Virus record (IMG/VR): IMGVR_UViG_2537561935_000012
Origin: a virus
Taxonomy: Duplodnaviria; Heunggongvirae; Uroviricota; Caudoviricetes
DNA: 64,000 nucleotides
Reading direction: 5' to 3' (one strand)
Positions 19,564 to 59,405 of the stretch are shown here, piece by piece. Under the pieces are notes generated by a model that was not told the DNA's origin, did no database searches, and saw only the letters and a program-made list of their open reading frames with translations. A program made the position numbers and the translations under genes. Position 1 is the first letter of the stretch; every line of letters starts with the position of its first letter.

Positions 19564-19582
19564 AAATGACTAGCGGTAGAAT
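19564..19582 (+). promoter_or_regulatory. candidate late promoter
   Basis: AAATGACTA-gcgg-TAGAAT about 30 nt before the ATG at 19612; matches the motif seen at three other operon starts. Confidence 0.4.
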
Positions 19583-19611
19583 CACCATCATCTATTTCTG
19601 GCAGGCTGACT

Positions 19612-19989
19612 ATGGCTACATCAATCACTACAACCCAAAGCACCCGGCAATATCCTCTGTCGCGGTATGACGACCGCAACATAGCCGATCCAATACTCAG
19701 GGCAGAGCTACGCAAAGAGGTGATGCTTATGTGTGAATCGAACGACAAGAATATGACGATTTATTACGTTCTTCCCGATGAGCAATATCGCCCGGATTTG
19801 CTGGCTTACCGTATGTGGGGCATAGCAGAGCTACGCTGGGTTGTGACGCTCGCCGCCGGGCTTGAGGATGAGTCTCAGGGTATGACTGTTGGCAAAAAAT
19901 TAAAACTCCCACCTGCCACCTGGATCCGCGAAATGATTCGCCATTTCCAATACGACGGCCAGGTAATAGGGACATTATCCATTGCGTAA
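19612..19989 (+). CDS. hypothetical protein (late operon)
   Basis: 125-aa ORF. Confidence 0.5.
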   Translation: MATSITTTQSTRQYPLSRYDDRNIADPILRAELRKEVMLMCESNDKNMTIYYVLPDEQYRPDLLAYRMWGIAELRWVVTLAAGLEDESQGMTVGKKLKLPPATWIREMIRHFQYDGQVIGTLSIA

Positions 19990-19998
19990 GGGAATTGA

Positions 19999-21216
19999 AT
20001 GCCAACTGAATATGCTCGCGACAACCTTGGTCGCTATCAGACCGATGGATTAAGTGCAAAAGACTTTAACAAGGTCTTCGATCTTATCCGTAAACAGCAG
20101 CGTCAGAATCGGCGAAACGCGCGGCGTACACTCACCCCAAGGATTATGGGGATGCGTAACCGCGAACTTGAGGCATTCCTCAGCCTTGGGAAAAAGAAAG
20201 ATGGCACCTACTTTACGCCCGAAGATATACGCAGTTTCAACACCTCAAGGCAGGCTCATAAAACCAAATTCAAGAGCACGGTACCCGGCATTACCTATGC
20301 TCAGCTGGTGGCGCAGTCCACCAGCATTGATATAAAACGCGCTAACAACAAAGTTTCTGATGGCACAGGGATCAAAGCCGCGACATTTCTCGGGCTAAAA
20401 CACAACCTTGCATTGATATCTGTTAATGCCTCGGATGAGTCTGTCCACCAGCATCACCGTGTCAGAATTCGATTTGAGGAATGGGATAAAGCCGTTGAGG
20501 ATATTGCTGAAGACGGTGCGAAAAAAGCCCGAATCGCTGCCGATCTCTGCAAGGGCCGGGTATCTTTCGACTGTGATTGTGGACGCCATCAATACTGGTA
20601 TCGTTATATGGCCACGGCTGGTAACTATGCTGTCGCGCCGCCAAAAGAGTATGCATTCCCCAAAATCCGCAACCCTGATCTGACTGGTGTGGCTTGCAAA
20701 CATGTTTTGCACGCTATGACGCGTTTTCAGTCTCCCACATGGCACAAGGCCATCATTATTGCCCTGGAAAAAGCAGCTGAACAGGTAGCCTTCGGCGATG
20801 ACAAGCGGAAGACAACAACCTATTTCAAAGGCGAACTGGCTAAATCGCTCGCGCGCAACCGGACAACAACGACGGATCAGGCTAAAGCTGCGCGTGAGTA
20901 TGAGCTGTATCTGAAATCTCAGGATGCATTAGGCAAAAAACTACGCGCCAAAGATAGCGCCACGGACAACGTTCGCCGGTTGTTAAAAAAAGCTCGCACC
21001 ACGGCAAACAGGAAGAATGCCGAACTAAAAGCATCGCGGGTGAGGGAAGCCCAGGCTCGCGCTGAAGCCGACGCTCTCAAAAAAGCCCTGCAAACGCAGG
21101 CGAACAACCTCATAAAGTTTTTCATGAGTCAGGGAATGGACAAGACCGCTGCCACCGCGCAGGCGCGAAGCATTCTTGAGACACAAATTAACGAAGCCCG
21201 TAAACGGAAAGGATAA
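19999..21216 (+). CDS. hypothetical protein with SWIM-like zinc finger
   Basis: 405 aa; CDCGRHQYW...CKHVLH; Lys/Ala-rich C-terminus. Confidence 0.5.
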   Translation: MPTEYARDNLGRYQTDGLSAKDFNKVFDLIRKQQRQNRRNARRTLTPRIMGMRNRELEAFLSLGKKKDGTYFTPEDIRSFNTSRQAHKTKFKSTVPGITYAQLVAQSTSIDIKRANNKVSDGTGIKAATFLGLKHNLALISVNASDESVHQHHRVRIRFEEWDKAVEDIAEDGAKKARIAADLCKGRVSFDCDCGRHQYWYRYMATAGNYAVAPPKEYAFPKIRNPDLTGVACKHVLHAMTRFQSPTWHKAIIIALEKAAEQVAFGDDKRKTTTYFKGELAKSLARNRTTTTDQAKAAREYELYLKSQDALGKKLRAKDSATDNVRRLLKKARTTANRKNAELKASRVREAQARAEADALKKALQTQANNLIKFFMSQGMDKTAATAQARSILETQINEARKRKG

Positions 21217-21219
21217 TCG

Positions 21220-56735: not shown

Positions 56736-57091
56736 TGGCCAACAATAATGAAATTGATCCTTTACTGACGCTGGAGTTATCCGGCGTAAAAACGTATGAG
56801 TCCCAGGAGGAGGCCTGGGGCGCTCGTTTATATGAGTGGCTAAACACTTATCAGGGTGAGGTATACGGGGATCCGTCATGGGGCAATGTTTTACCGCAGT
56901 TTAAACACGAACCAACCAACTTGTCGCATGTTCAAATTGCGGTTGAGGCAATGCTGTTGCAAAAACTGACGGTAGATTTACCTGACATACCGATTTCTGG
57001 TTTGTCAGTAGCCGAGGGAGATGCTTTTGATAAGTTGAAAATATCCATTCGTATCAGGGATATAACTATCACACAGGACGTGGTGCTATGA
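56732..57091 (+). CDS. baseplate wedge protein (gp25/W-like)
   Basis: 119 aa, coupled to sit and the downstream gene. Confidence 0.5.
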   Translation: MMANNNEIDPLLTLELSGVKTYESQEEAWGARLYEWLNTYQGEVYGDPSWGNVLPQFKHEPTNLSHVQIAVEAMLLQKLTVDLPDIPISGLSVAEGDAFDKLKISIRIRDITITQDVVL

Positions 57092-58521
57092 GTAAAACAA
57101 CACCGACTAAAGACAGTATTCGTGCAGAGTTTGAAGAGCTTGTCGAGAAAGATTCATTCTGGTCGAAGTTTGTCGGCTCTCAATTTGTCTCGATGCTGAC
57201 ATTGTTTATTACCCAGATTGTCTACAGGTGCTTTCAGTATGCCGATGCGGCGCTGGCTGAAGGCTTTATATCGACCGCGACGCGGCGTTCCTCTATCCTG
57301 GCAGCGGCAGAAACGAATAGTTACGTTGGTACCAAGCCAACACCGTCATCGGGGATGATTGAGATCACTGCCACAAGTGAAGATGCCCCAGCGGTAATCC
57401 CCAAAAACATGCCTTTAATATCTGACGACCAGTACCCTTACATGACTATGGATGTATGCAGGTTGGTTGACGGCACCGGTACGGTAGAAGTGGCACAGTT
57501 GGAAATCCAGGAGGTGACATATACCGTTACGGCAGCCAAAGAATTTCTGGAAGTCGTGTTATCAAAGGCTCTCACTGCTGTCTGCTATAAGCTGGAAGTA
57601 TTCGTGACGACCGATGGTAAGACCACGCAGTGGTCTTCCAGCACTATGTTCCGGTTAGCCGGTAGTAAAAGCCAGGTCTACGTTGAGTTTTATAAACCAT
57701 CCGAGCAGTTGGGGGTTCGATTCGGCGATGGGCTAATTGGGCAAATACCGCCAGAAGGCTCGACAATTACGCTTAAGGTATGGTGCACCAACGGCGATAT
57801 AACCCTGGTTGCTGGCCAAAACCTGACGCCTGTCGATTCTGCGGCTAATTTAGCTAATTTGATTTCAGTTAAGACAACGACACCTATAACCGCAGGTACC
57901 GATGCCGAAACAACGGAGATCACACGTAACCGTGCACAATATTACCTTGCCTATGATGATCAGGTCGTATGGGGCGGGGACTATACGTATTTTCTGGTGC
58001 GTAACATCCCGGGACTGTCCTGGGTAAAGGCATGGGGCGAAGGCCAGCAAGAGAAATTAGATGGTGCTTATAATGTTCGGAATATCAATAAGATATTTAT
58101 TTCAGGGTGGCATCCAAATAAAAGCCAGTCAGAGCTTGAAGAAATGATCCTGGCTGCCTTTAAGAAGGTGCCGAATGAGTTGAACAAGAAATTCTCGTAT
58201 AAAGAGGTCAGAAAACTACCCTTTAAGATCACCATCACCGGGCGGATATCGGCAAGCCTGACCATTGAGAACGTGACTGATGAGCTGAAGTCGGCACTGG
58301 AAACAAAATTTGGGCGTGACTCAACTTTCTTTGATCCGAGCCGTGTCGGCAAGTACATCCTGATTAAGAAAAAAGACGTTTGGGCATTTATCGAAACGCT
58401 GGGTTATTTCCGCGACTTTTATCTGGAATTTGTCGAGTGGAATGAGTCCAACGGCTTTTACGATTTCGTTTATCTGGATACAGAAAACTCCACCTTTAAT
58501 ATTTCGTATGAGGAGGAGTGA
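57088..58521 (+). CDS. baseplate J-like protein
   Basis: 477 aa in W-J-I order. Confidence 0.5.
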   Translation: MSKTTPTKDSIRAEFEELVEKDSFWSKFVGSQFVSMLTLFITQIVYRCFQYADAALAEGFISTATRRSSILAAAETNSYVGTKPTPSSGMIEITATSEDAPAVIPKNMPLISDDQYPYMTMDVCRLVDGTGTVEVAQLEIQEVTYTVTAAKEFLEVVLSKALTAVCYKLEVFVTTDGKTTQWSSSTMFRLAGSKSQVYVEFYKPSEQLGVRFGDGLIGQIPPEGSTITLKVWCTNGDITLVAGQNLTPVDSAANLANLISVKTTTPITAGTDAETTEITRNRAQYYLAYDDQVVWGGDYTYFLVRNIPGLSWVKAWGEGQQEKLDGAYNVRNINKIFISGWHPNKSQSELEEMILAAFKKVPNELNKKFSYKEVRKLPFKITITGRISASLTIENVTDELKSALETKFGRDSTFFDPSRVGKYILIKKKDVWAFIETLGYFRDFYLEFVEWNESNGFYDFVYLDTENSTFNISYEEE

Positions 58522-59357
58522 TGCAGCGTTCCTGGTTTAATAACCGGCTTACATCAGCTAAGCAAAAGTCATTGCTCTATAAATCATTGGCTGATTTGGT
58601 TCAGTCAATGATGGATACCTTTGTTGACCCATGGTTGGAGCGAATTACCAACCGGAAGTCTATTTTTTCCATGAGCAAGGAGGATCTGGAGACCAGGACA
58701 AATGAACTTGGCCAGTTCTTTACTATCAGAACGTCGAACTCATCTTCCGTTCCGATGTTGTTACAACAGCGTCTTGATGAGATTCACTTTAAGGGGACTG
58801 AACGCCCTATAAACCAGACAATTTACCGCGAATTTAACGGTATTTCTGTTTTATGGGATCCGATATATGCACCGGTGGACCTTGAGCGTCATCCCTATGG
58901 CACGGTTCTAATACCTGAAAGCACACTGGAGACTACCGGCGGCACATTCGGCGAGATGTTTCTGACTTCCAGAGGGATGATCAGTATTCCCATAAACGAC
59001 CTGGCCCGGACAATGGGGATTACTGGCACGATAGATCAGTCCGCAATTACAGAAGAAATTCTCAGAAAGTTTAATCAGTTCGTAAAGCCTCTACTGCCAC
59101 TGCATATAGTGTTTGATGGGCTTACGCTCTATTTGTCGGTTGTTGTAAATGAACACGCCGACATGATCACTTTGAACGAGATTTCTGATACCGAAAAAGC
59201 GTACTGCTGGTTTGAAACTTCGGATACAACTTCGCTTACTGGAGTTACGTCGATTAGCGCTCCGATCACTGCAACGCCGGGCGGCACTATTGTGAAAGCA
59301 ACGCCTACGTTTGATCGCACCCGCGCAGATGATTTGCTGCTGGATAGTGATGCCTGA
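58518..59357 (+). CDS. baseplate I-like protein
   Basis: 279 aa; followed by a GC-rich hairpin. Confidence 0.45.
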   Translation: MMQRSWFNNRLTSAKQKSLLYKSLADLVQSMMDTFVDPWLERITNRKSIFSMSKEDLETRTNELGQFFTIRTSNSSSVPMLLQQRLDEIHFKGTERPINQTIYREFNGISVLWDPIYAPVDLERHPYGTVLIPESTLETTGGTFGEMFLTSRGMISIPINDLARTMGITGTIDQSAITEEILRKFNQFVKPLLPLHIVFDGLTLYLSVVVNEHADMITLNEISDTEKAYCWFETSDTTSLTGVTSISAPITATPGGTIVKATPTFDRTRADDLLLDSDA

Positions 59358-59386
59358 TAATCACCCCGTCCGCAGGGCGGGGTGAC

Positions 59387-59405
59387 AAGTTACTTATCTT
59401 ACAAT
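59387..59405 (+). promoter_or_regulatory. candidate late promoter of the tail-fibre operon
   Basis: AAGTTACTT-atct-TACAAT about 30 nt before the ATG at 59436. Confidence 0.45.

Follow-up and report, generated by a model that had tools for sequence, protein, structure and literature searches.

Late promoters of the P1 type upstream of structural operons in a Punavirus phage-plasmid

What switches on the structural operons of IMG/VR virus record IMGVR_UViG_2537561935_000012 (Duplodnaviria; Heunggongvirae; Uroviricota; Caudoviricetes), in which one short bipartite motif recurs upstream of several operons? The stretch of DNA analyzed here (the window) is 64,000 nucleotides (nt) long. An initial annotation, made from the sequence alone, described the motif as a conserved 9-mer, a 4-nt gap and an extended -10-like hexamer with no -35, placed it upstream of four plus-strand operon starts and, in a weaker form, upstream of pacA on the minus strand, and proposed that it marks activator-dependent late promoters. 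Our analysis leads us to regard these sites, with high confidence, as late promoters that depend on Lpa, in a phage-plasmid of the P1 type (genus Punavirus).

Five bipartite sites and the annotated late promoters of P1

Megablast assigned the window to the genus Punavirus, with 97-99% identity to P1 (AF234172 / NC_005856), P7, SJ46, RCS47 and others; the orientation is reversed relative to P1, such that the plus strand of the window corresponds to the P1 minus strand. On this sequence identity, the window is a P1-like phage-plasmid. The P1 record AF234172, whose full annotation was listed, carries 11 late promoters, seven of them within the P1 range that the window covers. In the window, six of the seven agree with P1 at every base, and LPsit has a single difference. 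The same count of 11 is given in the literature, where the 9-base pair (bp) inverted repeat present in each is the Lpa-binding site (PMC10695390). The seven promoters, and the operon that LP26 drives, are located in the window as follows.

3001-3019, minus strand: LPpac; box ATGTGACTT at 3011-3019, spacer tcgt, -10 hexamer TACCCT at 3001-3006; identical to P1 90475-90493, annotated 'late promoter LPpac'
6320-6343, minus strand: LPhot, upstream of hot; box AAGTTACTT, 9-nt spacer, AATAAT; exact match to P1 86521-86544, 'late promoter LPhot'
19554-19572, minus strand: LPpmgL; -10 hexamer AATATT; exact match to P1 78495-78513, 'late promoter LPpmgL'
19564-19582, plus strand: LP26; AAATGACTA-gcgg-TAGAAT; exact match to P1 78485-78503, 'late promoter LP26'
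39224-39242, plus strand: LP23; AAGTGACTT-tcaa-TAAAAT; exact match to P1 58825-58843, 'predicted late promoter LP23'
51145-51163, plus strand: LPsit; AAATGACAA-ctcg-TAGAAT; orthologous to P1 46608-46626, 'late promoter LPsit'
59387-59405, plus strand: LPs (Ps); AAGTTACTT-atct-TACAAT; exact match to P1 38318-38336 and to M81956 532-550
19612-24363, plus strand: late operon 26-25-7-24-6-5 (baseplate, tail), driven by LP26; 99% identity over its full length to P1 73704-78455

The five sequences that the initial annotation had placed at 19564, 39224, 51145 and 59387 on the plus strand and near 3002-3022 on the minus strand were all found there, the weaker pacA site occupying 3001-3019 (-). The motif search and comparison with P1 that had been suggested as a check mapped them one-to-one onto LP26, LP23, LPsit, LPs and LPpac. 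In AF234172 each of the five sites carries the label 'late promoter' with a '-22 region' and a '-10 signal', and lpa is encoded in the window, which bears out the proposal of activator-dependent late promoters. Judged by their identity, the five sites are the P1 late promoters themselves in a close P1 relative; they were already known, and the reading of the raw sequence was a correct rediscovery. Of the late promoters in the window it recovered five of seven; LPpmgL and LPhot were missed.

The distance between the -10 hexamer and the start codon is 29 nt for LP26, 51 nt for LP23, 31 nt for LPsit, 30 nt for LPs and 36 nt for LPpac (the pacA start codon being GTG), in agreement with the original estimate of about 30-50 nt. 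The segment 19612-24363, which had been marked as a late operon, equals the P1 LP26 operon and closes on a TAA stop codon at 24361-24363. LP23 is located upstream of the capsid/sheath operon (genes 23, 22, 21 and following), LPsit upstream of pmgC-tub-pmgB-sit-pmgA-bplA-16, and LPs precedes the R-S-U operon of the tail fibres. LPpmgL and LP26 diverge, and the palindromic 9-bp box at 19564-19572 is common to both promoters, on opposite strands; the C1 operator O26 (19523-19539) adjoins the pair.

In the case of LPs, an older P1 record (M81956) annotates a '-22 box of Ps', a '-10 box of Ps' and a transcription start from the Ps late promoter at nt 559. This start is 9 nt downstream of the -10 and maps to A59414 of the window, where the surrounding sequence is identical; the center of the LPs box is 23 nt upstream of it. 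Between gene 16 and the LPs box, directly adjoining the latter, is a GC-rich hairpin (CACCCCG..CC-gca-GG..CGGGGTG, 59362-59384 on the plus strand); lacking a T-run, it was not called by a terminator scan.

Anatomy, non-randomness and conservation of the motif

The 9-mer is an inverted repeat, AAGT-N-ACTT, with the consensus AAGTNACTT; its conservation had been recognized initially, but its inverted-repeat nature was overlooked. Deviations from the box consensus number zero to two across the five sites, apart from the LPsit box (AAATGACAA), which has three. The predicted succession of 9-mer, 4 nt and -10-like hexamer was found at all five sites, the hexamers being TAGAAT (LP26), TAAAAT (LP23), TAGAAT (LPsit), TACAAT (LPs) and TACCCT (LPpac), each after a 4-nt spacer. 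Two annotated members of the set depart from the box-N4-TANNNT arrangement, namely LPhot with its 9-nt spacer and LPpmgL with its AATATT. A search for TTGACA at 16-18 bp spacing gave best matches of 0-2 of six positions in each of the five cases, where the window background has a mode of 2-3, and the claim that these promoters have no -35 was thereby upheld; a sigma-70 scan around LPs returned no site. The label 'extended -10' did not survive, as the TG at -15/-14 is absent from all five sites and the hexamers are plain -10 hexamers.

The degenerate pattern AARTKACWW-N4-TANNNT, which summarizes the four plus-strand sites, occurs four times in the window compared to 0.23 expected, and 0 of 100 dinucleotide-preserving shuffles reached four occurrences. 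Since this pattern was derived from the very sites on which it was tested, an independent matrix was trained only on P1 LPmat, LPpro, LPlyz and LPdar, which lie outside the window, with the spacer columns ignored. It was scanned over ~128,000 strand-positions, and expected numbers were taken from 200 first-order Markov random windows. LP23 ranked 1, LPs 3, LPpac 5, LP26 6 and LPsit 10, and the equal-or-better matches expected per random window for these ranks were 0.005, 0.015, 0.085, 0.24 and 4.7, respectively. Four of the five sites are individually improbable by chance, and the outcome named initially as damaging to the proposal, a motif equally frequent at random positions, was not what was observed. 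A loose consensus search that permitted three mismatches gave nine matches compared to 6.7 expected, which is not above chance. Specificity comes from the 9-mer core together with the A2 and T6 positions of the hexamer.

Homologues of Lpa in a phage collection include one from Cronobacter phage JK004, at 67% identity, and one from phage D6, at 31.5%. When a matrix built from nine P1 sites was applied to JK004, the best matches fell immediately before the orthologues of gp26, gp23, R, prt, pacA and pmgC. Ungapped comparison of five sites between the window and JK004 gave 87% identity for the box, 87% for the -10 hexamer and 60% for the spacer, whereas the flanks reached 36% (40 nt upstream) and 45% (30 nt downstream). 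Box and hexamer are conserved and the flanks are not; therefore, selection appears to act on box and hexamer and not on the flanks. JK004 is thus like the window in placing the box-N4-hexamer architecture before orthologous genes, and differs in its largely unrelated flanking DNA and in a record that has no promoter annotation. P1 itself has the same promoters, all positionally orthologous, with the 9-bp inverted repeat at about -22, the 4-nt spacer, TANNNT and no -35. It differs by one substitution in the LPsit box, a T-to-A change (AAATGACAA in the window versus AAATGACTA in P1), and in the DNA just upstream of LPsit, which is simABC in P1 and another cassette in the window. The ATGACAACTCGTA core of LPsit also occurs in JK004, where the A variant of the box is seen.

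Directly 5' of the box there is an AAC or GAC triplet at every window site (19561-19563, 39221-39223, 51142-51144, 59384-59386 and, on the minus strand, 3020-3022) and at the JK004 orthologues, and one or the other of these triplets is present at most other P1 late promoters. The recognized or conserved element may therefore span about 12 bp rather than 9. The best P1-type match in JK004 is AAGTGACTT-tctg-CACAAT at 39411-39429 on the minus strand, upstream of gene_46 (38630-39271), a gene with no obvious counterpart among the operons of the 11 annotated P1 late promoters.

Phage D6 (MF356679) resembles P1 in gene order, in having an Lpa-family activator directly upstream of pacA, and in carrying a recurrent element followed by a TANNNT-like hexamer. 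However, D6 has AAATCACA(N) and a ~6-7-nt spacer in place of the P1-type AAGTNACTT with its 4-nt spacer. The P1-type matrix found no matches upstream of the D6 late operons and one isolated perfect box at 71096-71114. AAATCACA occurs 17 times in D6 compared to 4.4 expected and to a maximum of nine in 100 random sequences, and eight copies, with a TANNNT-like hexamer after them, precede genes of late type (prt, ddrA, R, pmgB, gene 23, gene 7, mat and a peptidoglycan hydrolase).

19215 (+), 25234 (-), 27740 (-), 38128 (-), 45504 (-), 54137 (-), 67406 (-) and 72113 (-): AAATCACA(N) elements of D6 (MF356679)

This distribution suggests that a diverged Lpa and its site have varied together.

The late promoters of Mu (activator C), P2/P4 (Ogr/Delta) and T4 (gp55/gp33) are likewise under positive control, with a recognizable -10 and a poor or absent -35. 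They differ from those of P1 in activator families, site sequences and positions, and T4 replaces sigma altogether; none of them is known to have any sequence relationship to the P1 box. The Francisella MglA-SspA-PigR system is alike in that a DNA-bound activator works via an RNA-polymerase-associated SspA-family protein. It differs in serving a cellular virulence regulon, and neither its DNA-binding protein nor its promoter sequences are related to those of P1, so that the likeness is one of mechanism only; its authors cite P1 Lpa-SspA as a precedent (PMC1891329).

The activator Lpa and the weighing of explanations

The gene for the activator, lpa (gene 10), shares its strand with LPpac and lies a short distance upstream of it, together with its own promoter and operator.

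3051-3503, minus strand: lpa, encoding a 150-amino acid Lpa that is 149/150 identical to P1 Lpa
3549-3576, minus strand: Plpa, a sigma-70 promoter; exact match to P1 89918-89945
3574-3590, minus strand: Olpa, a C1 operator overlapping Plpa; exact match to P1 89904-89920

The protein matches Pfam PF25716 BPP1_LPA ('Late promoter-activating protein') with an E value of 2e-57, above the cut-off, and PHROG 1704 ('Lpa-like transcriptional activator'). A search of the PDB returned no solved structure for any Lpa relative, and no curated Lpa model was found in NCBIfam. Lpa is described as a sequence-specific DNA-binding activator that works with SspA, while SspA does not bind late-promoter DNA (PMC1891329). 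P1 late genes need both Lpa and SspA, and several Lpa-controlled operons also carry sigma-70 promoters (PMC8201110). SspA bridges sigma-70 region 4 and the zinc-binding domain of the RNA polymerase beta-prime subunit (PMC7515715).

Because the window is 97-99% identical to P1, we infer that the promoters of this element act as they do in P1. In the prophage, C1 bound to the operator overlapping Plpa would keep lpa silent, and all late promoters would thus be off. Induction or infection would relieve this repression and allow Lpa to be produced. Lpa would then bind the inverted repeat, centered ~22-23 bp upstream of the start, in place of the missing -35 contact, and, together with the host's RNA-polymerase-associated SspA, would recruit or activate the Escherichia coli sigma-70 holoenzyme at these promoters lacking a -35. 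The operons for packaging (LPpac), baseplate and tail (LP26), capsid and sheath (LP23), tail tube and injection (LPsit) and tail fibres (LPs) would be transcribed as a result. Of the elements of this account, identity with the annotated P1 promoters, non-randomness, the absence of a -35, selective conservation and an intact lpa with a C1-controlled promoter come from the present analysis, and binding of Lpa to the box, the requirement for SspA and the mapped Ps start come from the literature or from record annotation.

Several observations weigh against assigning all of these sites to Lpa. The matrix score of LPsit (10.7) is inside the range of random matches, with 4.7 expected, and the assignment of LPsit therefore rests on position and orthology; in addition, the T-to-A change in its box relative to P1 may affect its strength. 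LPpmgL has a poor -10 and a low score (matrix rank 63), and the P1 record calls LP23 no more than 'predicted'. Several late operons have predicted sigma-70 promoters and C1 operators (e.g., P1 23 and O26); therefore, dependence on Lpa may be partial. The mechanistic statements, finally, rest on secondary citations and GenBank annotation.

If the sites were instead ordinary sigma-70 promoters, either constitutive or controlled by C1, the common 9-mer would be incidental, a relic of paralogous or recombined upstream regions. The P1 record does predict sigma-70 promoters at or near LP23 (P1 23, P2 23) and LP26/LPpmgL (P26, P1pmgL, P2pmgL), and a C1 operator is annotated at O26. We nevertheless consider this explanation very improbable, as none of the five hexamers has a usable -35, the sigma-70 scanner was empty around LPs, and the 9-mer is far better conserved in JK004 than its flanks, which argues for selection on the box and not for shared ancestry of the upstream regions. 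The literature, moreover, gives the box to Lpa (PMC1891329, PMC10695390). The box is also a perfect or near-perfect inverted repeat, and AAGTNACTT is present in six copies in the window compared to ~1 expected, three of them without a -10 hexamer. Such features would suit a palindrome that serves as an RNA or DNA structure signal (hairpin, processing or termination) or that binds a protein other than Lpa, with the adjacent -10 a coincidence. This explanation seems to us just as improbable as the sigma-70 one, since a 4+1+4 palindrome is too short for a stable hairpin and the fixed 4-nt spacing to TANNNT is kept at orthologous positions in JK004. Furthermore, the P1 Ps start is downstream of the box, which is therefore not transcribed from Ps. 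A mutational analysis of Ps was reportedly published by Lehnherr et al. in 1992.

The possibility that the motif is a product of chance, i.e., of pattern-fitting to four AT-rich intergenic stretches, draws on the fitting of the degenerate pattern to its own sites and on the three-mismatch search that did not rise above chance. The fitted pattern is nonetheless in clear excess over its expectation and over the shuffles, and chance is refuted by the ranks obtained with the matrix trained outside the window and by conservation at orthologous positions in JK004. We give this possibility the least credence of all. Late promoters that depend on Lpa thus remain the explanation to which the evidence points for these sites.

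Further box-like sites, the LPsit breakpoint and the value of the result

Box-like sites outside the annotated set also occur in the window, the strongest being ranked second by the matrix.

46190-46208, plus strand: late-promoter-like site; perfect box AAGTGACTT, spacer tagc, CAGCAT

P1 carries the identical site at 50726-50744(-), with no annotation of a late promoter there. The site overlaps the start codon of repL and is directed antisense into kilA. An inverted repeat of 8 bp, CCAGCATT-ac-AATGCTGG (46202-46219), extends across that start codon as well. Its hexamer, CAGCAT, resembles the CAGAAT of LPmat, and its high score is partly due to the presence of LPmat in the training set. That 46190-46208 is a functional twelfth Lpa target is unlikely. 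If it were, binding of Lpa could either give rise to an antisense transcript directed at the early kilA-repL operon or prevent repL expression late in infection, and the late switch would be linked to shut-off of the early lytic-replication operon. Phylogenetic footprinting of this site was uninformative, as JK004 has neither kilA nor repL and the N-terminus of D6 RepL is too diverged. PLSDB plasmids covering the region were either at least 95% identical or weakly or partially similar, with no usable intermediate divergence.

Two perfect AAGTTACTT boxes are located inside coding regions, at 43569-43587 and 56303-56321, both on the plus strand and both without a -10 hexamer; the sequences that follow them, AAGTTACTTTAACGAACTC and AAGTTACTTTGACCAACTC, are similar to one another. 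Within gene 25, AAGTGACTG-gtga-TAACCT at 21269-21287 on the plus strand has matrix rank 4 and is identical in P1 at 76780-76798, where it is unannotated. It is probably a chance or intragenic match, although it may be an internal promoter.

At LPsit, homology to P1 breaks within ~3 nt of the upstream edge of the box. The P1 superimmunity genes simABC are replaced in the window by three open reading frames, located at 48867-49385, 49474-49980 and 49967-51040. The first two have hydrophobic, signal-peptide-like N-termini, and the third is an SH3-domain protein according to the annotation of matching plasmids. This cassette (48867-51040) is also present in P1-like plasmids of Escherichia fergusonii and E. 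coli.

The result is mainly one of validation, in that a classic regulatory signal of phages, together with the late operon under its control, was correctly read from raw sequence, and it adds nothing to existing knowledge of P1 late transcription. For this element the gain is one of annotation: seven late promoters are now fixed, as are the gene for the activator and the C1-controlled switch of that gene. What value remains beyond this is in the consensus box at the repL start, which the P1 record does not list among its late promoters, and in the co-variation of activator and box suggested by D6. If the latter is unpublished, P1 and D6 would form a natural specificity-swap pair with which to learn how Lpa-family proteins read DNA.

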